DNA of 64,000 nucleotides from Candidatus Micrarchaeia archaeon (GTDB lineage: Archaea; Micrarchaeota; Micrarchaeia; Anstonellales; Bilamarchaeaceae), in contig JAXLQI010000002.1 of the NCBI GenBank assembly GCA_046331685.1, forward strand, positions 34,630 to 98,629. The letters run 5' to 3'. How positions within the stretch are numbered: the stretch's first letter is position 1; the number at the start of each line of letters is the position of its first letter. The notes beneath the pieces were generated by a model. It had not been told where the DNA came from, did no database searches, and saw only the letters and a program-made list of their open reading frames with translations. This document shows positions 4,001-60,870 of this stretch, piece by piece. The position numbers and the translations under genes are program-made.

Positions 4001-4582
4001 ATGCCCATGCTTGTCGTTTTCGAAGGAATCGATGGAGGAGGAAAAGAGACCCAGATTCGCCTCCTCCGGGAAGCGCTGGCGAAGAAAGGAAAAACGCTCA
4101 CGGCGCTGAAGTACCCCACGCGGAAGACCCAGATACTCAACGATTATCTGGAGAAGAAGGCGATCGTCCAGCCTAAATCGCTTTTCCTGCTCTTCCTCGC
4201 CGACATCGCCGAAGACCAGGAGAATGTCCGCAAGGCGCTCTCATCCTACGATGTGGTCGTCCTCGACCGGTACGTGTTCTCAACGATCGCATACGAAGTG
4301 GACAGCATCGACTATGCGCGGGGGAAGAGGATCGTCGAGAGCGTGGAATACATCCGTCCTGACATGGTGGTCCTTCTCGATCTGGACCCCAAACTCTCCC
4401 AGGAGCGCAAGCGGAAGCAGAAAGCGCTGGACCGCTATGAGGAAAATGTTTCATATCTGGCCGGCGTCCGGAAGAATTTCCTGAAACTCGCGGAAGAAAG
4501 ATTTTTAACCCCGAATTGGCATAGGGTTGATGCCGGCAAAACCATAGAGGCCGTGCACACGGATATCATGGATTTCTTCTGA
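4001..4582 (+). CDS. tmk: Thymidylate kinase
   Basis: 193 aa; P-loop 'EGIDGGGKET' and a DRY-type motif ('LDRYVFS'). Confidence 0.85.
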   Translation: MPMLVVFEGIDGGGKETQIRLLREALAKKGKTLTALKYPTRKTQILNDYLEKKAIVQPKSLFLLFLADIAEDQENVRKALSSYDVVVLDRYVFSTIAYEVDSIDYARGKRIVESVEYIRPDMVVLLDLDPKLSQERKRKQKALDRYEENVSYLAGVRKNFLKLAEERFLTPNWHRVDAGKTIEAVHTDIMDFF

Positions 4583-4583
4583 T

Positions 4584-4799
4584 GCTCCGTTCGTCTAGAC
4601 CGGTCAAGGATTATGGACTTTCATGCGCCTTTTGAAAAAAGGCGCCCCAAAACAGTCTGTTGCAAAACCCATCCGGGTTTTGGGCTCCCATACAGAGCCA
4701 TTTTTGCGAAAGCAAAAATTAGCAAGAATGTTTTTGGGCGCTTTTTACTAAAAAGCGCGAAGTCCTCCATCGACCTGGGTTCAAATCCCAGACGGAGCA
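4584..4799 (+). tRNA. tRNA-Glu(UUC) interrupted by a ~141-nt intron in the anticodon loop
   Basis: Acceptor GCTCCGT (4584-4590) pairs with ACGGAGC (4792-4798); discriminator A. D-arm has G.U wobbles as in archaeal tRNA-Glu. Anticodon stem ATGGA/TCCAT; loop CTTTCAT with anticodon TTC at 4620-4622. T-arm CTGGG-TTCAAAT-CCCAG. Intron is about 4625-4765. Folded by eye only. Confidence 0.7.
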
Positions 4800-4885
4800 A
4801 TCTTCCCCCATCAGCCACAGCACTCCCGAAACCTATCCGCTGAAATGCGATGCAATGATTATATTCCCCCTACGTCCTGAATCAG

Positions 4886-5836
4886 ATGATGCGCCTGTTG
4901 CTATGCCTATTCGCACTCTCCGTCCTTTGCTTCGCATCGAACGAAACCAACATCACGCGTTTCCTCGATGTCTCCCTCAACACCTCATGCCCCGGCAACC
5001 TCCTGACCGCCGTAGCGACCTCATCCGACGGCCTTCCCGCAGCCGGCATCGAGCTCCGTCTTGTGCTCTATGAGCCCTACCAGGGGTTAAGGGCGCTTCA
5101 ACACACAGACCAAGGCGGGATGGCTAGGTTCGAGCTCACTAAGGCCGGCAAATACCGGCTTTACATATACACGAAAAATTACAACCACGACCAGTATGCG
5201 GAATTCGCGTATCCTGCCCTCTGCCCTCCCCCTCCGCCGAGGCAGATGAACATCACCGCGCTCCCTGACTGCGGGAAGGGCATCCTGTTGGTCCGCGCAG
5301 CCGATGCGAACGGGACGCCCCTCGAAGGAGCGTTCATATCGGTCCAGGACGGCCGGAGCTGGTCCTCTCTGAGCGGCAAGAGCGGAGAGGTCTCATTCCC
5401 GCTCGATGAAGGCGACATATTCATCAACGCATCGCGCGGCAACTATTCAACGGTCGGCTTTTACTCCACGGTGGACTGCACCCCTCCGGAATGCCTGGAA
5501 GATGGGCAATGCGCATCAAACCAGTATTGCTCCGAGGAAAAATGCGTCGAAGCCGTCGGGACCTGCGGCTATCCTGCGAACCACAGCTGGGTGCATTATA
5601 CCTGCTGCTCTGATACGGACTGCGGCAATGCGTCGATGTGCATCAACAACACGTGCATCCTCAGGCCGCCGCCTCCGCAGCCCCAGAACATCACCAACCT
5701 TTCTAACGCCACCCCCACCGCAAAAAACGCCTTGCCCAACGAAACAGTCAATGAGGGGGGAAAGGGCGTGGCGGGCGGTTGCCTTGGGTCAGCCTTATTG
5801 CTGGCCGGAATCCTGATCTGGAAAAAGAATAAATAA
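4886..5836 (+). CDS. Secreted, C-terminally membrane-anchored cysteine-rich surface protein with many N-glycosylation sequons
   Basis: N-terminal signal peptide; numerous NxS/T sequons; C-terminal TM followed by basic tail 'IWKKNK'. Confidence 0.6.
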   Translation: MMRLLLCLFALSVLCFASNETNITRFLDVSLNTSCPGNLLTAVATSSDGLPAAGIELRLVLYEPYQGLRALQHTDQGGMARFELTKAGKYRLYIYTKNYNHDQYAEFAYPALCPPPPPRQMNITALPDCGKGILLVRAADANGTPLEGAFISVQDGRSWSSLSGKSGEVSFPLDEGDIFINASRGNYSTVGFYSTVDCTPPECLEDGQCASNQYCSEEKCVEAVGTCGYPANHSWVHYTCCSDTDCGNASMCINNTCILRPPPPQPQNITNLSNATPTAKNALPNETVNEGGKGVAGGCLGSALLLAGILIWKKNK

Positions 5837-6009
5837 CCGAAACCCCGGCGGGGTTTGGCTACGCGAGGTTTTGGTGCACTTTTCAACAAACAAGTTTTGG
5901 TCAAATTTTTCCTAAAAGTTTGATGGGCTTCCGCTTGGCGTTTGTCGCCAAGATCGTCCATTTTCCTGAGCCAAAACGCAGACACAACCTGCAAACCCCA
6001 GTAAAATGG

Positions 6010-6290
6010 GCTTCCCGGTTTGCCTTGGCAGATATGCAAGGAGCCGCAACCGTCCACTCGATCCTGTTTCCCACAAGCACGGTACAAAACGCTTAGGGCT
6101 GCTCCTTTCGGCCTGACCCGGTTCACATGTCGCGCCGCCATATGAGGCAGGACGTCAACGCTTAAGGCTGAGGGCATGCATAAAAGACAAAACGCCCCGG
6201 GCTTTCGAGCCGCCTGAAGGGGATGTGCGGAATCGGGACCCCTAGCCCCGCTCTAGCCCATGATATATCTGCCGGCCCCTGTTTTTAATC
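6010..6290 (-). ncRNA. Candidate signal recognition particle (7S/SRP) RNA
   Basis: Minus strand at about 6097-6121 reads 'CCGGGTCAGGCCGAAAGGAGCAGCC', close to the conserved SRP helix-8 motif GUCAGG.CCGGAAGGAAGCAGCC. The presumed ends (plus 6263-6275 and 6026-6034) are complementary over 9 bp (GGCAGATAT/ATATCTGCC), as expected for terminal helix closure. The 450-bp gap has no convincing ORF. Confidence 0.45.
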
Positions 6291-7031
6291 TCACCGGAAC
6301 GGGCTTGTCACTACCTCAAGAATGCCCTGATGAAGGTTCGGGCCGGCCGCGACGACGCCTGCCGAGAACACAGAGAAAGGCTTTCCTTCGAGGTCCGTGA
6401 CCACCGCCCCGGCCTCCTGCATCACAAGGAATCCGGCCGCATGGCTGGCCTCATGGAGGGGGACGACGACACCGTCGATCGCTCCGGCTGCGACCGCGGC
6501 GTAATCGGCCGCAGGTGACCCGGTGTTCCTCCATGCGATCCCGTTGCGGGATAATGCCCCTATCGCTTCTATCCCGGGGGCATACTCGCCGTCCGAATAC
6601 ATATCACAGTAGCAGCATACGAGCGAGGCCCGGATGTCGTCACGCCTGCTGGCCGACAGCTTCCGCCCGTCGGCGCGTGCACCCCTGCCTCTCTCTGCCG
6701 TGACCATGCTCCCTCTCTCAGGGAGGGAAATCACGGCGAACACAGGCGACCCTTCCTCGATGATGGCAGCCATAACGCCGAACTCTCCGAACCCCCTCGA
6801 GAAATTCACCGGCGAATCGAGAGGGCATATGCTGACCGCCCTCGCGCCTTCCTGCGCCTCGCCCCAGAGACTGACCGACGGGTCCGCAGCGCGGATCGTC
6901 CGAACCATCAGGTCCCTAGCACGTTTCTCCATGTCATAAGCCGTCTTCCTCGAGGACGCCTGCCTCCTGAGGAAAAAGCCGGCTTCCTGGGCGGCGCTGA
7001 TAATAGCCCCCTTAAGAGTATCATCCATCAT
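6291..7031 (-). CDS. Inositol monophosphatase / fructose-1,6-bisphosphatase family protein
   Basis: 246 aa; metal-binding motif context ('EEGSPVFAVISLPERG', 'WRNTGS', 'GAIDGVV') typical of the IMPase/SuhB fold. Confidence 0.7.
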   Translation of the reverse strand: MMDDTLKGAIISAAQEAGFFLRRQASSRKTAYDMEKRARDLMVRTIRAADPSVSLWGEAQEGARAVSICPLDSPVNFSRGFGEFGVMAAIIEEGSPVFAVISLPERGSMVTAERGRGARADGRKLSASRRDDIRASLVCCYCDMYSDGEYAPGIEAIGALSRNGIAWRNTGSPAADYAAVAAGAIDGVVVPLHEASHAAGFLVMQEAGAVVTDLEGKPFSVFSAGVVAAGPNLHQGILEVVTSPFR

Positions 7032-7061: not shown

Positions 7062-7616
7062 TCAGAACGCATAGCGCACGCGCTTCTCGACGTCTTTGAC
7101 CCGTCCGAGCACTGCCCCGGACCCAGAGTAAGCGCGGTAGCCTTCGATGAACGGCTCCCTGGATCCGGCGCCTATCGAGCGTAGCATGGTGAAGACGTCC
7201 ACGGCCTTGTCCTCGATGTCGTCCGAGACGAATCCGAGGCCGAAATCGATCACTACCATCCCTGACCGGCCCGCGATGAGGTTAGCCGGCGTGAAATCGC
7301 CGTGTATTATATCCGCTCCATGGAGCCTGCCGAGCATCATCCCTGCCTCGCGGGACTGCACCGCATCCATCCGCGGCCTTTCCCCATGCACGAGCGTCAT
7401 CGTGATGGAGAATTCGCCGACTCCAAGGACCACAGGGCAATCCACGCCTGCCAGTTTCGCGCGGTTGAGGAGGCGCGCCTCGCCCCTGGTCCGCTCTATC
7501 CGCAGCTTCCGGTCCAGCTCGGGATTGCGGTATCCCTTCGGATTCCTGAGCTTCACCACCGCATCCTTCCCTATAACGGTCTTCCTGGTCAAAACCGCCT
7601 CAGCGCCCCTCAACAT
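7062..7616 (-). CDS. bud32: Bud32/PRPK-type atypical Ser/Thr kinase (KEOPS complex subunit)
   Basis: 184 aa small RIO-like kinase; 'IHGDFTPANL' catalytic loop and 'VVIDFG' DFG-like motif; typical archaeal Bud32 length. Confidence 0.8.
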   Translation of the reverse strand: MLRGAEAVLTRKTVIGKDAVVKLRNPKGYRNPELDRKLRIERTRGEARLLNRAKLAGVDCPVVLGVGEFSITMTLVHGERPRMDAVQSREAGMMLGRLHGADIIHGDFTPANLIAGRSGMVVIDFGLGFVSDDIEDKAVDVFTMLRSIGAGSREPFIEGYRAYSGSGAVLGRVKDVEKRVRYAF

Positions 7617-20065: not shown

Positions 20066-20925
20066 CCGGACAATAAAAATGCAGGAGGAAGACCCTCAGA
20101 GCAGCTCTGAAGCCTGACCTTTCCTTAGCGCCCTGATGTCAAAATTGGCATCAAGCAAAATATAGTCGTCTGCTGGTAATGAGGCATAGTGAATATAGTC
20201 AAGAACGAAACAATTATAAACATAAATTATCACAAAATAAACCATGCTACGAGTACCTCTAAATAAAGCAATTCCGACAACACCAAGGAGGACTCTTGAT
20301 TTTGCCTTGGCGCCAAAAGGGCTGAAGCCGAAATTAAATGGCTTTTGAAAAGTACAATGAAGGTACGGAAGCTCGGAGCGAACCTGCCGAGCTTGCAGAT
20401 TATTGGTTTTTTGAGACGGTCGTGAGGCTGCACCGGGGCGGGGAAGGGGCCCCATACACGGGATTGAACCCGGTGGTGCTCGGCGGAAGCCCGGCGCTGC
20501 GGGCAGAACGCTGCATCGAGAAAGGAGATCCGAAGGAAGTGGTAGCGTTCCTGCACGTCACTGGGGTACAGATGCAGCGGATGTTCAAGGAAGCGATGGT
20601 AAAGAAAAGAATTAGTGATGAAAATGATGTTGACGCCGCACGTGAATATGTAGAAGCGATGCTTGGCTTCATATTGTATTCCCATGGCCCGTACAAGTGG
20701 CGATAAAGAGCGGAGGCCCCATGGTGAAAAGGGGAAGGAGGAGAACGCGGAGGCCACAAGCATTGAGTTTAGGAAAGCGATCTGATATTCGTTTTTGTGG
20801 GCGCGCTGAACGTACCTATCGGTCGTGCCCCTTGCAAGCAGAATTCCGCCCAATGGTTACAGTCCTGAACCATTAGTGGTATGCAGAGGAAGGACTTCAG
20901 AGCTGCTCTGAGGTCTGACCTTGGC
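20066..20925. mobile_element. Remnant (~0.8 kb) of an older integrated element, bounded by degenerate copies of the tRNA-Leu 3' end
   Basis: Degenerate tRNA-3'-end-like copies at about 20066-20125 and 20870-20925. Both carry the palindrome 'CAGAGC(A/T)GCTCTG' and match the 3' exon of tRNA-Leu(CAA) at 25730-25775. GC content drops from about 20000. Confidence 0.5.
20338..20706 (+). CDS. Hypothetical protein inside the element remnant
   Basis: 122-aa ORF with protein-like composition; no family recognised. Confidence 0.3.
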   Translation: MAFEKYNEGTEARSEPAELADYWFFETVVRLHRGGEGAPYTGLNPVVLGGSPALRAERCIEKGDPKEVVAFLHVTGVQMQRMFKEAMVKKRISDENDVDAAREYVEAMLGFILYSHGPYKWR

Positions 20926-21157
20926 AATATCCACTGTCCGACATTGACTGTAGCGAGCGAGGCTACGTTTTGTTCTGTTTTTAGTTTCTTGATGGTAAAT
21001 TTTGCATAACTCGACTTCGGAAATCAGTTGGTAGGTATAAGATAACGGGATTACTAATATTAACTGTCTCGTCCAACCAAGTAAAAACTTCGGAACAATA
21101 AACAAAGTCAATGCAATACAAAGATGGTAAAGAAAACATATCAACTAAAGGTGCCTT

Positions 21158-21595
21158 TTAAACGAGACAAACCATGAACATTTCGAAGTATCTCAAATTA
21201 ATAAATAGAAAATACAGATACAATGTGGTAATGCTATCAGAAATGGGATATGATATAAAAAGGCAGAGATGATCACGCCTAGAATCGTTGGTGGGACGAT
21301 TGCAACCCAACTGCCCAAGATCACGGCTGACCACAGCCAGCAGCCCAGACGGAAAGAAGACTTGCAAGAAAAGGAATATGATAAGCAAAGGAGACGATAT
21401 CGAATAAATGACCAGAGAAGAAAAGGTATAACAATGTAAATAATCTAGGTAGCGTGCTTTGCCCCCAACCCGTTTACCAATGAAAAATATTAACCAAGGA
21501 AAAAAGGTATAATCACCAAAACTTGATAAATATGACAACGGTGCCCAGCATGACTTTGGAAAAATCCCCATAATCTGCACCTTGCGAGTATTCAT
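21158..21595 (-). CDS. Hypothetical small membrane protein in the low-GC element
   Basis: 145 aa; very hydrophobic (I/L/F-rich) with 3-4 TM-like segments. AT-rich codon usage, so it may be a spurious ORF. Confidence 0.3.
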   Translation of the reverse strand: MNTRKVQIMGIFPKSCWAPLSYLSSFGDYTFFPWLIFFIGKRVGGKARYLDYLHCYTFSSLVIYSISSPLLIIFLFLQVFFPSGLLAVVSRDLGQLGCNRPTNDSRRDHLCLFISYPISDSITTLYLYFLFINLRYFEMFMVCLV

Positions 21596-22774
21596 TCATT
21601 ATAAAAGGAAGACCTATTACCAATGCAAGAAATGAGGGAAACATTGCGGCACACTAGATTTCTTATGATGATAGACCAAGAGGCATTGGAAAGCTCTTTC
21701 TGACAAATCATTCATTTTGTTTGGGCGAAGAAAAGAATGAACAAATCCCATATTTGCATGGATGTGTATTAGTTGGTTGGGTAATTAAACCCTTCATAGA
21801 TCCCTCTTTTTTAAGCTCTGCTTCTCAGAACAGTACTCGGCGAGATGATCTTACTCTCGCATAAAATTTGTTATCGTAGCAGATGTGGCCTTCAGACCTG
21901 CGATCTGTTCTGAGTTCCTCAGGACAGACGAACTGGATCTGAGGTTCCCAAGCGGGTAAGATCTCAGACCAGATCTGAATGCAGGAGGGAAAACGCTGAG
22001 CCCAGGGCTCAGAACAGAGCCGTTCAAAGACCCGTCCGATTGGTTCGAAACTTCCCTCCCGTAATAACCATTTGGTTCAGGTCAGAACAGAGTCCCGTTT
22101 TGACCTCTCAACCGAGTGGCCGCTCTGGTTGGAGAGCTATATAAAGTTATGGCTCAACAATATTTTCTATGGCAAAACCAATAATTGAGGCTTGCAAACT
22201 GTCCCCGGCAACTCAAATTTGGGATTACAGCTGCCGTTGCATTGCGAAGTTCTGGGCTGAATTCTTCCGGGCTCTGTTAGAGGATTTATTCAAAGGAGTA
22301 CTGCTAATCTTTTATCCGATTGCTACCGCAGATTTTTTTACTGCTATCCTGGCCTCGGTTTTGCTATGCGATACTGCTTTTTTACCGGAAAATTACTTTA
22401 TGGCTTAAGAAAGTCAAAGTGTGATAAATATTAAGATATAACTGTCTGTGATGGCACGTGTGGCTTAAGGCCTGACTCCCCTCAATATTTCCTTTGAAAT
22501 TACTTTTGCCGCCCTTTCCCTGTCCCGGGAACCCGACTATGTCGATGGTCTGGGATGCGAGCTGTATCCCATCTGTCTTCTGCACCTCTTCAGGATGCGG
22601 CCGCTCAGTCGATTGAATGTCTGGCGCCTCAACCGACTTCGGCAACATAACGAATGCTCATCGATATCCAATTATCCGTCAGCTTGATGAATATCTGGGG
22701 TTCGACATCCTTCTGCTGGAAGAAGTATTTCTCTCCCATGCCGGCCAGTTCCTTCGAGGCTTTTTTCACGGTCT

Positions 22775-23450
22775 CTAGCGTTTCTTTCCTTGCAACGTCT
22801 GAAAAAGGGTTATGGCCTTTTCCAATCGCTGTCGTATGTCACTGAACCCAAATTTCATCCCAGATGAATTCATGGTCTTTAGCAGTATAGTTTTGTATAA
22901 TCCCTGAAATGACATGGCTATTCGGGATGATCGTGAGCCTGCCTGTAGCCTGGTCGCCTTCAATCCATTCCCTCGTCTCAAGCAATGTCGTGTAAAAGAT
23001 ACCTATATTGACAACATCCCCATAGACAGAGTCTATCTGGACGCGGTCTCCGACCGAATAAACCCGCGTGAGAAGGAGTATTGCGCCCCCCGCCATATTT
23101 TTAAAAACATCCTGAAGGGCTATTGCGATGGCCGCGGCAATGAGGCCGTATGCTACGAGAATTGCCTCCGGGTTAGGGATCCATATCGTTATCACGACTG
23201 CGATGACGACAATTGCATTGATGATGGAGACTATCCTTCGAAGCTCGAACTTCCTGCGGCTGTCCTTCACAGTCCCTGTGATGGCGTCTTCGACCACTAT
23301 CTTGAAGATGGCGTATACCACCGCCAATGCAGCGAAGGTGTAAAATGCTTTCAGAAGGTACTCATTCTGATATACTGAGTTCGCATACCAAAGAGCTGCG
23401 GATGCAATGAGCAGCCCTGTGAACACCAGAACCTTTCTGATTGAAATCAA
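22775..23450 (-). pseudogene. MscS-family mechanosensitive channel, C-terminally frameshifted or truncated
   Basis: ORF 22839..23450 has the MscS TM3 and beta-domain signature ('DRVQIDSVYGDVVNIGIFYTTLLE...IIPNS') but ends prematurely after '...EFIW'. The continuation ('GFSDIRQRLEKAI', compare E. coli 'YDSDIDQVKQIL') lies in another frame (ORF 22775..22981), then stops again. Confidence 0.5.
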
Positions 23451-23525
23451 ATTTACACCCTGGTTTCTTGGTCAGAAGAGAGGCACAACCAAAGTTTATA
23501 AAATATCGTGCGTAGCAGGTAAGAT

Positions 23526-23933
23526 GTGCCTATGTTCAAAGAGCGAGAAGGAACGAAAATGAGGAAGGTGATGCGGCGACCGGGCAGCCAGGTTGCCAGA
23601 AGACGGCCAGAAAATGTTAAAAGATGCATTTACTGCGGGAAACGCGTTGTCCGCTTTTTTTGGAAATATGGGAAGAAGATTTCGTGCTACTCCTGTCACT
23701 TTCGCCATGCTTCGAGCATAAAACGCAGTAAGAAGAAAATTTCTGGAAATCTTAAGCAAGATGATATGAATCGGAGTTTACGAAGGGCTGCGCGTCGCGA
23801 GTGGATTGTTCAGCCTGACCAGAGGGTTATTGAAAATCTTGAGGGTCCGGGTTCCGGTCCGCCAAAGCGCAGAAAACAGAGGCCGTTCAGAAAATTGCGC
23901 AATGCCTTGAAGATTGAGGGAATACAATACTGA
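23526..23933 (+). CDS. Small, highly basic Zn-ribbon protein
   Basis: 135 aa; pI clearly basic (many R/K); 'CIYCGKR...CYSCH' zinc-ribbon-like Cys pairs; inside the element. Confidence 0.4.
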   Translation: MPMFKEREGTKMRKVMRRPGSQVARRRPENVKRCIYCGKRVVRFFWKYGKKISCYSCHFRHASSIKRSKKKISGNLKQDDMNRSLRRAARREWIVQPDQRVIENLEGPGSGPPKRRKQRPFRKLRNALKIEGIQY

Positions 23934-24029
23934 TGGATTCAGACAGGATTGGCTGGCACAATAAAATAATAGATTCGCCTTTCTTGAATTACTGCGAGAG
24001 ATAGCGCCTAATTCTGCGATTTTCAAATA

Positions 24030-24340
24030 AATTTTGACCTGTATTTGGTCAAAATTATTTAAGGAAAGTTTTGAACTCGCTGTTTGACCTCACGCAGGGG
24101 TTCTCCGTGCAACCAAGATCATGAATGTCGTAATTCTGGAAAGTGCTTTCCCGTATGAAGGTCAAAAAGATATCGGATGGGCCTAGATAAAAATCATTTT
24201 GAGCCATTCTTGCATATCTCAAAGAGATGGCTTCTATCTCCTTGATTTCCACTCAAATTTTGACCTGTTTCTGGTCAAAATTTTTCGAGGAAAAATTTGA
24301 CCTAATGATTTTGACCTCATAGGTCAGAATGAAGCTGGCC
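24030..24340. repeat. Iteron-like array of TTTGACC half-sites, including two 33-bp near-identical palindromic units
   Basis: 'AAATTTTGACCTGTATTTGGTCAAAAT' at about 24036 and 'AAATTTTGACCTGTTTCTGGTCAAAAT' at about 24253. More TTTGACC/GGTCAAA copies at about 24085, 24300, 24313 and 24322 ('TTTGACCTCATAGGTCAGA'). Lies between the integrase 3' end and the Zn-ribbon gene. Confidence 0.6.
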
Positions 24341-24343
24341 CAT

Positions 24344-25561
24344 TCATTGAAAGCTATTGTTTAGCCCCATCTCGAAAATCTTGCGGAGCATCATGTCCTT
24401 GAACTCATTATCCTGCATCAGCCGGTTCATGATGCCATCGGTAGCTTGCCGGTCCTTCTCAAGAGAGAAGATAAGGTTCTCATCGAGAGGCAGACCGCAT
24501 TTAACGCAGTATTTGGAGGCTGGAGAGTTGTTCTCCTTGCAGCGCTGGCAGCTCTTGGCCTTGATTTTTTCCTCTTGGCTTACCTCGTCATGGGCAAGGC
24601 CTTGCAGCTTCAAGAGCGCATTATCCACGTCGCGCCCGCTCAGATGGACATACGTAGAAGCCATATCCGAACCTTGAACCCACCCAAAGTATTCTTTCAT
24701 CTGCGCCTCCGTGAGCTTTCCGGCCAGCGCCGTAGCTCTGGAGTGGCGGAAAAGATGGGGGTGGATATGCTTCTTTATGCCAGCCTTGTCTGCCAGATTC
24801 CGCAGGAGCTTATAGACTGAGCGGTGGTCCATGCACTGAATCATGTTCTTTGTCTTCCATTTCGCGCACTTGGGCGGCCAAAGTGGGGCGTTCGGCTCGT
24901 CCTTTCTTCGATAGTTATCGACCCATTGGGCCAAAGCGGGCGCAGAGCTGATTATCCTTACCCTTCTATCTCCTGTTTTGCCGGTAACCCTCAGGACTGC
25001 CCCGTATTGGTCGAATTTGACGTTTTGCATACTGAGGGTGAGTATTTCCCCTATCCGGCACCCGGATTCGTATAAAACCAATACAAACGCCTTATCCCTT
25101 GGGTTTTCGGCTTGGCTGACTATCCTAAGGACTTCGTCCTCTGTCAAAAGGTCTTCAGGCAGCTTGTGTTTCTCGTTTTTCAGCTTGGGTTTCAGCCAGC
25201 TTATCTCCGGCGGGAAAGTCTCATCGTTGCCTTTGAGCCACTTATAGAACATCTTAAGGACGATTTTGAAGTCAAGGCGGGTATATTCCGCGTATTTGGG
25301 GTTGTTTTCAAGTCCCCCGACCAAGGTAATGAGATCCTCCTTTGTGGCCTTTCCGAACGGCTTGTTTAGCCATCCTGCAAGGAATCTTAGGCAATATACG
25401 ACCTTTGCCACACGGCCATGAGTCGCCCCCTTCGCCAAGCGGATTTTAGAAAAAGCGATGATGCTTTCCTTGTTCTCTTTGCTAACCGCCCGGTCTTTAT
25501 TGAGGTTTTCTATCGCCAGTTCAAGACGCCTGGGATAGTTGTATAGACCAAATCCATCCAT
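24344..25561 (-). CDS. int: Tyrosine recombinase / phage-type integrase
   Basis: 405 aa; C-terminal catalytic domain with R...HxxR...Y ('HLFRHSRATAL...STYVHL'); N-terminal SAM-like domain; followed by a C-terminal Zn-ribbon-like extension (CQRC...C..C). Confidence 0.9.
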   Translation of the reverse strand: MDGFGLYNYPRRLELAIENLNKDRAVSKENKESIIAFSKIRLAKGATHGRVAKVVYCLRFLAGWLNKPFGKATKEDLITLVGGLENNPKYAEYTRLDFKIVLKMFYKWLKGNDETFPPEISWLKPKLKNEKHKLPEDLLTEDEVLRIVSQAENPRDKAFVLVLYESGCRIGEILTLSMQNVKFDQYGAVLRVTGKTGDRRVRIISSAPALAQWVDNYRRKDEPNAPLWPPKCAKWKTKNMIQCMDHRSVYKLLRNLADKAGIKKHIHPHLFRHSRATALAGKLTEAQMKEYFGWVQGSDMASTYVHLSGRDVDNALLKLQGLAHDEVSQEEKIKAKSCQRCKENNSPASKYCVKCGLPLDENLIFSLEKDRQATDGIMNRLMQDNEFKDMMLRKIFEMGLNNSFQ

Positions 25562-25729
25562 GTTTTCACTCCGGCTGGAGGTCTATTTTAGGGTTCCGAC
25601 AAATCGACGCTTCGATTTGTGGACCATTAAATTGCCCCCGTCTTTTTGCAGTTTCTGGGCAATTTAATTGGTCGTGCCCCTTTGGGCAGAATTCTGCCCA
25701 ATGGTTACAGACCCGAACCAAAAAGATGA

Positions 25730-25922
25730 TGCAGGAGGAAGGATTCGAACCTTCGAAGGCGCTGAGCCAACAGATCTCCCAAACCGCGTTTGGAAAGGGA
25801 AAATAACGCAGCTAATCCGGCCTCCTGAAACCTCTGGCTTTTCGCGGGCATTTTGCCCTTAGAAAAGCGGAGGTCAAAAGGCCCCTTGAGTCTGCCACGT
25901 TTGACCGCTTCGCTACTCCTGC
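25730..25922 (-). tRNA. tRNA-Leu(CAA), class II, interrupted by a ~109-nt intron
   Basis: Minus strand: acceptor GCAGGAG (comp. 25916-25922) pairs with CTCCTGC (comp. 25731-25737); discriminator A. Anticodon stem GCAGA/TCTGT (one G.U); loop CTCAAGA, anticodon CAA (comp. 25886-25888). 15-nt variable arm; T-arm GAAGG-TTCGAAT-CCTTC. Intron about 25776-25884. Its 3' exon is the sequence duplicated at the element boundaries. Confidence 0.65.
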
Positions 25923-33786: not shown

Positions 33787-34284
33787 ATGGCTGACATCGA
33801 ATATGCCGAAGGATACGTTGTTATACGGTCCAGGCCGCTGATCCTGAAGCTCCGGAGCCTGGGGGCGGGAGTGGAGGAAGCAGATGATACCAAGATCACC
33901 CTCATCGAAGCGGCATATTTCGCCGAGCGGAAGGTGCTTCCCGCCGACCATGCGGAGCTGATCCGGAAAGCAGCGGAAAGCGATCCGCTCGCGAGGGAGA
34001 AATACAGCGTCCTCAAATATCTCCGCGACCGCGGATACATCGTCCGGCCCAGCCTGGACGGGAGCGGTTATCTCCGGCTCCACCGGAAAGGATACCGCCC
34101 CGGAGAGGACAAGACCTACTACCTGATCGAAGTCGTCGGAAGCGGATGGAAGGCGAGTTTGGAGAGCCTGCTGCCAGGGCTCGAGACCGCCGGAAAGCTC
34201 CGCAAAGAGCTCGCTGTCGCGGTGGTCGGAGAAGGGGAAGAGCGGCCCCTGTTCATCAAATTCGGGAAGATGAATTTCGAGTGA
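33787..34284 (+). CDS. endA: tRNA-splicing endonuclease (EndA) subunit
   Basis: 165 aa; C-terminal catalytic-domain pattern ('KYSVLKYLRDRGYIVRPSLDGSGYLRLHRKG...YLIEVV...LAVAVV') with conserved Tyr/His/Lys positions. Confidence 0.65.
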   Translation: MADIEYAEGYVVIRSRPLILKLRSLGAGVEEADDTKITLIEAAYFAERKVLPADHAELIRKAAESDPLAREKYSVLKYLRDRGYIVRPSLDGSGYLRLHRKGYRPGEDKTYYLIEVVGSGWKASLESLLPGLETAGKLRKELAVAVVGEGEERPLFIKFGKMNFE

Positions 34285-60712: not shown

Positions 60713-60870
60713 GCTGACGTCGCATAACCTGGTAGTGCGCCGGTCTTGAATCCCGCCTTTTAGTAAAAGGCGGGCCCAAAACTGGGTTGTTTGCGAACCC
60801 CATCGGGGTTTGCCAACTAACAAAAAAACCGGTCCCTTCGGGATCGCAGGTTCAAATCCTGCCGTCAGCG
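60713..60870 (+). tRNA. tRNA-Ser(UGA), class II, with a 76-nt intron in the anticodon loop
   Basis: Acceptor GCTGACG/CGTCAGC; discriminator G. D-arm GCAT-AACCTGGTA-GTGC. Anticodon stem CCGGT/ACCGG; loop CTTGAAA, anticodon TGA (60747-60749). 13-nt variable hairpin (TCCC-TTC-GGGA); T-arm GCAGG-TTCAAAT-CCTGC. Intron 60751-60826. Confidence 0.65.

Follow-up and report, generated by a model that had tools for sequence, protein, structure and literature searches.

Transposed tRNA introns have been described in the Thermoproteales, in which intron gain was inferred from relatives and the splicing endonuclease has a broad specificity (Fujishima et al. 2010, Mol Biol Evol 27:2233, as summarised in PMC4090602 and PMC3239211). 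The present analysis concerns a tRNA-Glu(UUC) gene with a 141-nt intron, located in a 64,000-nt stretch of DNA (the window; contig JAXLQI010000002.1, positions 34,630 to 98,629, forward strand) from a Candidatus Micrarchaeia archaeon. With a probability of about 0.8, the region was read as a tRNA gene whose intron at position 37/38 is spliced by EndA and comes from a family that has multiplied among tRNA genes. Introns of this family are capped by a 36-nt module consisting of a hairpin followed by the tail CCCAAAAC. Related loci are referred to by number (L092 and so on), and the features of the window are collected in Table 1.

Compared with the summaries of the Thermoproteales groups (PMC4090602, PMC3239211), the Micrarchaeia introns are likewise non-coding, their gain is inferred from relatives and they are linked to the endonuclease. 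They differ in belonging to DPANN rather than Crenarchaeota, in their greater length (50-140 nt or more), in their 36-nt hairpin-plus-CCCAAAAC ends and in their four-way junction. Their module is moreover near-invariant across the whole class and also occurs outside introns. In ARMAN-2 (Ca. Micrarchaeum acidiphilum), 56% of the tRNA genes are interrupted, at various positions, and tRNA-Pro(GGG) has introns at 53/54 and 59/60 (PMC3239211); the epsilon2 EndA of this organism tolerates relaxed bulge-helix-bulge (BHB) motifs (PMC3239211, PMC3488258, PMC12397907). ARMAN-2 is of the same phylum as the window, and the tRNA-Pro(GGG) introns of locus L100 lie at exactly the same two positions, 53/54 and 59/60. 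Unlike the family of the window, the introns described and tested in ARMAN-2 are short (13 and 25 nt), with no shared module reported. The EndA-family protein encoded in the window is a single unit of 165 aa with a substituted site, whereas the ARMAN-2 epsilon protein has three units.

In Caldiarchaeum subterraneum, intron gain via a mobile element was proposed at a tRNA gene with a 1.8-kb insert containing an open reading frame (ORF) (PMC3293823). The insert there is accompanied by duplicated tRNA fragments and carries a recombinase. Comparable here are the duplicates of the host's 3' end that follow some copies of the module and an integrase island at the tRNA-Leu gene of the window. Unlike the Caldiarchaeum insert, the present units are ORF-free, measure 40-140 nt and keep a fixed polarity, and their intronic sites show no duplications. 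The Haloferax tRNA-Trp intron (~100 nt) is also a long, structured archaeal BHB intron and has a conserved interior, whereas the tRNA-Glu intron contains no C/D boxes and its family occupies many tRNAs with a dispensable interior. Short palindromic units, often in inverted pairs around a variable linker and in many copies per genome, are further known from bacterial repetitive extragenic palindromes (REPs), bacterial interspersed mosaic elements (BIMEs) and miniature inverted-repeat transposable elements (MITEs). REPs, however, are extragenic and unlinked to tRNA loops or splicing, while the present module has a fixed polarity and no regular target-site duplication. The hairpin-capped intron family is apparently undescribed so far; no description of the module was found in literature searched by topic and by sequence strings, most subscription journals lying outside this search.

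The tRNA-Glu(UUC) gene and its splice sites

Default ARAGORN called no tRNA genes across the 64-kb window, and the Rfam tRNA model gave no match at 4584-4799; a permissive Rfam scan of 4500-4900 returned the tRNA 3' half alone (15 bits). In intron mode, ARAGORN called a tRNA-Glu(UUC) at 4583-4800 with a 141-nt intron. Removal of 4624-4764 in silico gave a 75-nt product, which ARAGORN called as tRNA-Glu(UUC). Locus L092 has the same tmk-tRNA-Glu arrangement with an intron-less 75-nt tRNA-Glu (Rfam, 57.6 bits), to which the spliced product was identical at 71 of 75 positions, one T-stem pair being compensated. The BLAST alignment of the window with this locus ends exactly at 4623, the final base of exon 1. 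Because this intron-less syntenic orthologue matches the spliced product, the exon boundaries could be fixed, and in the predicted spliced RNA GGACUUUCA is joined directly to CUCCAU. An earlier note on the window had proposed a tRNA-Glu(UUC) with an intron of ~141 nt, and this was borne out by the intron-mode call, the splicing in silico and the orthologue.

Next to tmk, the tRNA-Glu(UUC) intron measured 0 nt in L092, 52-53 nt in L040 and L103, 101-104 nt in L016, L080 and L114, and 141 nt in the window. The closest relative of the window among the loci was a Bilamarchaeum bin, a member of the class Micrarchaeia, with ~75% nucleotide identity in the pyrB-tmk region.

Table 1. Features of the window discussed in the text (positions in nt from the first base of the window)
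Feature	Position	Strand	Description and basis
tRNA-Glu(UUC) gene with intron	4584..4799	+	ARAGORN intron mode; spliced product compared with L092
tRNA-Glu exon 1	4584..4623	+	tRNA positions 1-37, ends ...CUUUCA
BHB 5' strand	4613..4624	+	Anticodon stem AUGGA 4613-4617; central helix CUUU 4618-4621; bulge C-A/U 4622-4624 (slash, predicted 5' splice site)
5' end module	4623..4658	+	Hairpin GCGCCUUUU-GAA-AAAAGGCGC 4625-4645, tail CCCAAAAC 4646-4653; R1 50.6 bits, E = 6e-13
tRNA-Glu intron	4624..4764	+	141 nt, canonical 37/38, 45% G+C
Central hairpin	4663..4682	+	CAAAACCC-AUCC-GGGUUUUG; conserved among 101-nt forms, with compensatory changes (RNAalifold, 9 long-form introns)
Sub-family insert	4683..4719	+	37 nt, two hairpins GGCUC...GAGCC and AUUUUUGC-GAAA-GCAAAAAU
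3' end module, inverted copy	4725..4760	-	GUUUUUGGG 4730-4738, then hairpin GCGCUUUUU-ACU-AAAAAGCGC 4738-4758; R1 46.4 bits
BHB 3' strand	4759..4770	+	Central helix GAAG 4759-4762; bulge U-C/C 4763-4765 (slash, predicted 3' splice site); anticodon stem UCCAU 4766-4770
tRNA-Glu exon 2	4765..4799	+	tRNA positions 38-73
AT-rich module	5889..5924	-	CAAACUUUU-AGG-AAAAAUUUG + ACCAAAAC; R1 23.3 bits, E ~1e-4
tRNA-Leu(CAA) intron	25776-25884	-	109 nt
EndA-family protein	33787..34284	+	165 aa; Pfam PF01974, E = 6.7e-10
tRNA-Ser(UGA)	60713..60870	+	76-nt intron 60751-60826 (+/-1, A run); Rfam 43.8 bits; ARAGORN; orthologue alignment

The first and last hairpins of the tRNA-Glu intron are inverted copies of one module, with 34-nt arms that are 79% complementary; the final G of GUUUUUGGG, at 4738, is common to the tail and to the hairpin of the 3' module. 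The intron corresponds to a standard form of 101 nt plus 37 nt. The 37-nt insert was missing from the 101-nt forms and present in L100, L062, L125 and L126. All four hairpins listed in the earlier note were found where they had been placed, and its second was redrawn, since the conserved pairing is that of CAAAACCC with GGGUUUUG in the central hairpin, while CCCAAAAC pairs with the distant GUUUUUGGG (4730-4738). Its statement that C/D boxes are lacking also held, with neither a C box (RUGAUGA) nor a D box (CUGA) in the intron. Rfam gave no snoRNA match for the intron, and no known Rfam family was found in the intervening sequence in the permissive scan of 4500-4900. A group I or group II intron was rejected, as there was no Rfam match at the gathering threshold or at E <= 10 and 141 nt is too short.

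The splice motif was assigned by the rule that positions 32-35 form the central helix with intron positions -6 to -3 and that each cut falls after the second nucleotide of a 3-nt bulge. A textbook helix-BHB-helix (hBHBh') can form at both junctions; its outer helix h' is either GCGC/GCGC or is replaced by the terminal hairpins. With the hBHBh' pairs enforced the arm folded at -65.9 kcal/mol, and with both terminal hairpins added at -61.8 kcal/mol, against an unconstrained minimum free energy (MFE) of -70.3 kcal/mol. The whole pre-tRNA folded at -94.6 kcal/mol.

The remaining tRNAs of the window are also interrupted, so that, as claimed, three of three carry introns (141 nt in Glu, 109 nt in Leu, 76 nt in Ser). 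Rfam tRNA matches were obtained in the window at 60713-60870 and 25730-25922 (minus), both with large insertions in the anticodon loop. The latter was called Ser(CGA) by ARAGORN; a 37/38 intron of 109 nt and the discriminator A give Leu(CAA). The spliced products, as called by ARAGORN, were Glu(UUC) of 75 nt, Ser(UGA) of 82 nt and Leu(CAA) of 84 nt. In both the Leu and the Ser introns the 5' bulge lies immediately before an intron-internal hairpin. The 3' bulge of the Leu intron lies in a proper helix-bulge-helix context, and that of the Ser intron in a weaker one, with a central helix of 3 bp and a C.A mismatch.

The Ser intron comprises a 5' module (60751-60787, R1 45.2 bits) and the central hairpin, with no 3' module. 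Over their first ~60 nt, the Glu and Ser introns were identical in 46 of 59 columns (78%, local alignment), and the alignment score of 46 was reached by none of 1000 dinucleotide shuffles (17.3 +/- 2.8). The modules that the earlier note had seen in both introns are hence homologous. The same style had been attributed to the Leu intron; its similarity to the Glu and Ser introns was not significant, the scores being reached by 421 and 772 of 1000 shuffles, respectively. The Leu intron shares a 23-nt core, GGGCAAAAYGCCCGCGAAAAGCC, only with the 37/38 intron of tRNA-Gln(UUG) in L095 (~2840-2920), both introns also starting with GGGGCCUUUUGACCUC, and it was therefore placed in a second family. The same tRNA-Gln(UUG) also bears an intron of the first family in its D-loop. 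Among tRNA-Ser orthologues the 5' module was as invariant as the exons, and the rest of the intron ranged from 39 to 78 nt.

The earlier note had also reported endA in the window. An EndA-family ORF was confirmed there by Pfam. When it was compared with the structures 1a79 and 1r0v, His and Lys stood at the positions of the catalytic Tyr and His, and the catalytic Lys was kept. Since Tyr and His are both replaced, the 165-aa protein is, judged by its sequence, probably a non-catalytic, structural subunit of the splicing endonuclease and not the nuclease itself. The substituted site would imply a heteromeric endonuclease with a catalytic subunit encoded elsewhere. Heteromeric splicing endonucleases with broad specificity have structural subunits (PMC5829648).

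The end module and its distribution among tRNA genes

The module comprises a 9-bp hairpin of the form CC/GC-GCC-UUUU-NNN-AAAA-GGC-GG/GC followed by CCCAAAAC. A collection of one genome per species was scanned with the pattern GCCTTTTNNNAAAAGGCGN{1,4}CCAAAA, which returned at least 120 stretches. Among the matches listed, 83 came from ~31 Micrarchaeia-type assemblies, that is, assemblies labelled Micrarchaeota, Micrarchaeia, Bilamarchaeum or 'ainarchaeum'. The other matches listed were mostly from acetic-acid bacteria, with a few from other bacteria and Ca. Syntrophoarchaeum, and most had a different spacing. Two matches were found in the window against 0 expected.

The matches in Komagataeibacter, Novacetimonas and Ruminococcaceae were set aside as a different bacterial repeat or terminator. 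Loci of Komagataeibacter, Novacetimonas and Acetobacter (L007, L009, L012, L017 and ~30 other bacterial loci) contain many copies of GCCTTTTTNNAAAAAGGCGRCAYCCAAAA, which belong to an unrelated repeat or terminator family. A viral origin was considered and rejected; a viral collection gave three matches, all of the bacterial type with a 4-nt spacer and none of the Micrarchaeia type.

A covariance model, R1, was built to represent 2 nt, the 9-bp hairpin with its 3-nt loop, CCCAAAAC and 5 nt. It identified at least 112 full-length copies (E <= 3e-5) in the 83 Micrarchaeia loci and the window. Four copies lie in the window, at both ends of the Glu intron, at the 5' end of the Ser intron and, as an AT-rich variant, near the signal recognition particle (SRP) RNA gene. 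BLAST and exact pattern searches gave no further copies in the window, the AT-rich copy surfacing with R1 only. In the aligned hairpin columns, 99.9% of 978 cells were paired, and five of nine pairs showed double compensatory changes (68 cells). The closing pair was CG in 64 copies and GC in 43. The covariation values were reached by none of 500 shuffles, and double changes were visible in the raw pattern matches as well. The U4, A4, GGC and CCCAAAAC elements were nearly constant, with covariation in the closing pairs.

Hosts and positions of the copies were assigned by inspection of the flanks. An automated excision, in which every start and end around 109 copies was tried with ARAGORN, was too permissive and was used only for a few unambiguous cases. 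In at least 12 tRNA species, introns of the anticodon, D and T loops are capped by the module at their 5' end, their 3' end or both. The hosts at 37/38 are Glu(UUC), Glu(CUC), Asp, Asn, His, Val, Cys, Ser(UGA/GGA/GCU), Gly(UCC/GCC/CCC) and Leu(UAA). About 23 copies, covering at least 12 anticodons, begin 1-2 nt past position 37; ~12 lie in D-loops after ...GCUCAGU or ...GUAGUCGA (at loci including L019, L024, L095 and L122), and ~8 in the T-arm. A further ~29 copies mark the 3' end of an intron and read as reverse complements, the tRNA being encoded on the opposite strand. Convergent pairs of modules numbered 22 in the loci, nine of them 101-104 nt long.

The Glu intron of the window was 79% identical over 143 nt to the intron at 53/54 of tRNA-Pro(GGG) in L100. 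The diagnostic string of the 141-nt variant was also found in metagenome contigs, at 37/38 in tRNA-Val(GAC) (L126) and in tRNA-Ala(CGC) (L125), both ~79% identical. These occurrences strongly support, at the level of sequence, a family of introns that has multiplied among different tRNA genes. The earlier note had suggested mobility or homing. Spread among tRNA genes stands, given the 12 or more tRNA species involved, the three types of position, the Pro, Val and Ala variants and an intron-less orthologue; homing does not, as neither an ORF nor an endonuclease is present in the intron. The CC/GC stem variants track tRNA identity across genomes, which argues for long vertical descent under selection on the module.

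Two further observations were made at host genes. A tRNA-Ile(UAU)-like gene with apparently three introns, one of them module-capped in the T-arm, occurs in L086 (~7100-7400), L091 (~1750-2100) and L061 (~6000-6350) and was missed by both Rfam and ARAGORN. At L100 5560-5590 (minus), a second AT-rich hairpin of the same style, CACUUUUUU-GGA-AAAAAGUG, lies directly 3' of tRNA-Pro(GGG).

A consensus structure was calculated with RNAalifold from nine introns of 101-104 nt, taken in tRNA sense from Glu(UUC), Glu(CUC), Asp(GUC), Leu(UAA) and Arg(CCG)-like genes. It is a four-way junction with 42 pairs, 15 of which show compensatory changes. Its elements are the anticodon stem, the 5' hairpin, an inner stem (AAAAC/GUUUU, UGU/ACA) carrying the central hairpin GCRAACCC/GGGUUYGC, and the 3' hairpin. 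The two terminal hairpins within one intron often differ in their stems (CGCGC and CCGCC in L016), so each would pair with itself and not with the other, as a four-way junction requires. In the window the two are sufficiently alike that a rod is 4 kcal/mol better. Read from the alignment, the 4 nt after the 3' hairpin vary with the host (GAAG, GGAG, AAAG) and end in AG opposite C32-U33.

The inner stem of the long forms carries U.G pairs in tRNA sense. In eight of eight independent hosts, the asymmetric central loops are all pyrimidine-rich in tRNA sense (UCUC, UCUC, AUCC, AUC/UUU, UAUC, UUUC, UUUC and UUCC), which points to a fixed polarity of the element relative to transcription.

In short introns (for example L103 6676-6803, L040 2590-2716, L021 1722-1852 and L050 2407-2537), a third strand was seen, in which one arm of the hairpin recurs at the opposite end of the intron. 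Its sequence covaries with that of the hairpin (GGAAAAGG with CCUUUUCC, GGGAAAGGCG with CGCCUUUUCCC). As this strand can displace the partner in the hairpin, the RNA could alternate between two states, one with the terminal hairpin closed and one in which a long-range helix completes the BHB.

Copies outside introns and neighbouring features

The module was found directly 3' of complete tRNAs in L076 and L097 (Rfam, 58.7 and 66.1 bits) and also in L049, L041 and L083, and directly 3' of the SRP RNA in L092. Copies at protein genes lie between two translation-factor ORFs (L065) and past stop codons (L124, L014). One copy (49.6 bits) lies in frame within the ORF for orotidine monophosphate decarboxylase (pyrF) at L063 2226-2261, and the encoded protein is ~7 residues longer than that of PDB 3qw3 at the module loop; this copy would be either an insertion that the protein tolerates or a small intron in the mRNA.

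In the window, the SRP RNA was located by Rfam at 6006-6261 (minus), and the AT-rich module listed in Table 1 lies 81 nt downstream of its 3' end. Over 32 nt, this module shares 94% identity with an intron-end module in metagenome contig L125. The last 10 nt of the SRP RNA (GGAAGCCCAT, 6006-6015, minus) are repeated at 5923-5932, with a 7-bp hairpin before the repeat and the AT-rich module directly after it. A small intron near the SRP 3' end, an insertion duplication and a processing feature are candidates for this arrangement.

The last 8-14 nt of the host were duplicated after the copies at 3' ends (9 nt in L076, 8 nt in L049, 14 nt in L041 and 10 nt at the SRP RNA of the window), and flanking repeats of these lengths (8, 9, 10 and 14 nt) were confined to copies past RNA 3' ends. 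Among intronic copies, a flanking repeat of >=7 nt was absent from 77 of 85, matching the control. A module hairpin within <=45 nt downstream was found for three of the 58 tRNAs called by ARAGORN in the loci (background, 34 of 5000 windows). Such a hairpin is hence no general mark of tRNA 3' ends.

A low-GC island (20079-25741; 0.45-0.48 against ~0.58) lies directly 3' of tRNA-Leu(CAA). Its first ORF is a tyrosine integrase (24344-25561, minus; Pfam Phage_integrase, E = 1.7e-20), and it is flanked by a 13-bp direct repeat of the tRNA-Leu 3' end at 25729-25741 and 20079-20091. The island is probably a 5.6-kb integrated element. Within it, 21977-22149 resembles the tRNA-Leu region of L049.

Splicing, spread and alternative explanations

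According to the reading preferred here, the pre-tRNA would be transcribed as a single piece, EndA would cut it at the two bulges, and an RNA ligase would presumably join the exons. One module would lie 1-2 nt inside the 5' splice site; long forms would have a second, inverted one, 4-6 nt inside the 3' splice site. The tails of the two modules would pair with each other (AAAAC/GUUUU) and carry the central hairpin, so that the terminal hairpins would flank the splice-site helix in the four-way junction and may present the splice sites. The sole part matched to the host would be the 4 nt after the 3' hairpin. Because the final AG of this stretch pairs with the near-universal C32-U33 of anticodon loops, the same cassette would fit almost any tRNA, with the AG presumably acting as a generic guide. 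We infer that a trans-acting factor recognises the module sequence-specifically.

Several points weigh against this reading. The MFE fold of the Glu arm has no 3' bulge, as GGACUUU pairs with GAAGUCC; since the BHB is not the MFE structure but is near to it in energy, the motif would be accessible without being the ground state predicted for the isolated arm. For the Ser intron and several short forms, no more than a relaxed BHB is obtained, with a 3-bp central helix and no h' strand, an assignment made partly by inspection, and hosts and positions in general were judged from the flanks by eye. The EndA-like ORF of the window is without two of the three catalytic residues. The paired fraction in the hairpin columns is biased upward, because the alignment was fitted to R1. 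Seven copies lie directly past tRNA or SRP RNA 3' ends and four in or between protein genes; these copies outside introns indicate that the module has a life beyond splicing which the proposed explanation leaves uncovered. That splicing and ligation take place, and what becomes of the excised RNA, are predictions from the DNA.

The alternative that the gene is a split tRNA with a 141-nt spacer, or that the resemblance to the Ser intron arose by chance, is very improbable. Nothing was found in favour of a split tRNA beyond A- and T-rich stretches in the spacer that could pass for promoter or terminator elements. The two halves are collinear with 141 nt between them, the junctions pair as a cis BHB, and orthologues hold 0 to 104 nt at the same position, all of which contradict the split tRNA that the earlier note had raised as an alternative. 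Chance is countered by the shuffles (0 of 1000), by the two pattern matches against 0 expected and by more than 100 homologous copies elsewhere. A further proposal, that the intron is kept because the excised linear or circular RNA, a rod or a cruciform, is a functional small RNA, was considered improbable. The fold of the pre-tRNA is very stable (-94.6 kcal/mol), the consensus structure is conserved, as are the end modules in sequence, and archaeal BHB introns are known to be circularised, the Haloferax tRNA-Trp intron carrying a C/D guide RNA (PMC4090602). Against it, the Glu intron has no C/D boxes and no Rfam family at a permissive threshold, the interior is dispensable (orthologous introns measure 0 to 141 nt, with one orthologue intron-less), and dozens of copies per lineage in different hosts argue against a single gene product.

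What the module itself does, and by which route it has spread, admits of three proposals, all of them tentative. The best placed of them, a possibility compatible with the preferred reading, is that the 36-nt module is mainly an RNA signal, a mark for protein binding or for EndA binding and cleavage with a cut 1-2 nt upstream of the hairpin, which also serves the 3' ends of stable RNAs. In orthologues whose neighbouring genes are only ~70-75% identical, the module is as invariant as the tRNA exons, and U4, A4, GGC and CCCAAAAC barely vary while the closing pairs covary. The hairpin begins 1-2 nt past exon 1, and 0-2 nt past the mature 3' ends of tRNAs (L076, L097, L049, L041) and of the SRP RNA (L092). 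All non-intron copies with an assignable host are in sense orientation, and the polarity of the long forms relative to the host is fixed. EndA cleavage leaves a 2',3'-cyclic phosphate. A cut by EndA would hence leave this group and an extra nucleotide on the tRNA 3' end, which speaks against such a mark, as do the scarcity of downstream hairpins (only three of 58 tRNAs) and the reverse complement at intron 3' ends (GUUUUGGG plus a hairpin with a CCU loop), which does not suit a single RNA-binding site. No candidate protein was identified.

Less probable is a DNA-level, non-autonomous mobile element with terminal inverted repeats, of the MITE or REP type or a remnant of integrative elements that target tRNA genes, which would survive in tRNA genes through splicing. 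The long forms do have terminal inverted repeats of 34-36 nt around variable interiors, copies occur in intergenic spacers and inside the pyrF ORF, and those at 3' ends are followed by a direct duplicate of the last 8-14 nt of the host. There are no G.U pairs in 978 hairpin cells, as expected if both strands matter, and a tyrosine-integrase island lies at the tRNA-Leu gene of the window. For Caldiarchaeum, a mobile element has been proposed as the agent of intron gain (PMC3293823), and for Thermoproteales a process at the DNA level (PMC4090602). However, the intronic copies lack a target-site duplication (77 of 85, as in the control), and the duplicates at 3' ends measure anything between 8 and 14 nt, whereas a transposase produces one constant length. 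Polarity is fixed in eight of eight informative hosts, the non-intron copies are all in sense, and the inner stem uses U.G pairs in tRNA sense. The tie between the CC/GC variants and tRNA identity argues for vertical descent and not for recent bursts. No autonomous copy and no transposase, whether of the type associated with REPs (RAYT) or another, was noticed in the 8-kb loci, where no systematic search was made, and the viral collection held no copy of the Micrarchaeia type.

An equally doubtful proposal is that the hairpin-plus-CCCAAAAC module is a portable RNA cassette recognised by its sequence, representing a new class of RNA-level mobile introns in DPANN. Excised introns would be re-inserted into the exposed loops and 3' ends of stable RNAs by the endonuclease and ligase or by a dedicated factor, and copied back to DNA. 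A constraint at the RNA level or an RNA-mediated route is rather suggested by the fixed polarity, by the U.G pairs in tRNA sense and by the bias of the copies towards loops and 3' ends. Pointing instead to DNA are the inverted ends, the copies at protein genes, the duplicates found at 3' ends and a terminal hairpin free of G.U pairs. If true, RNA-level mobility would account for why polarity is fixed, why loops and 3' ends are preferred, why target duplications are lacking and why the ends are conserved like exons.

On the preferred reading of an EndA-spliced intron from a family multiplied among tRNA genes, this is a second, independent and much better-marked case, after the report of intron transposition in Thermoproteales, of how archaeal tRNA introns are gained. 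The recognisable 36-nt module at the ends of the family's introns allows gains, losses and transfers to be traced across the class and a factor that recognises the module to be sought. The four-way-junction design suggests how one cassette is spliced from almost any tRNA. Among 18 related loci, Rfam detected tRNAs in only four, and no host gene with an intron was among these tRNAs. Since standard finders miss intron-bearing tRNAs, 'missing' tRNAs in bins of Micrarchaeia and other DPANN may be annotation artefacts, which bears on claims of a reduced translation apparatus in DPANN.

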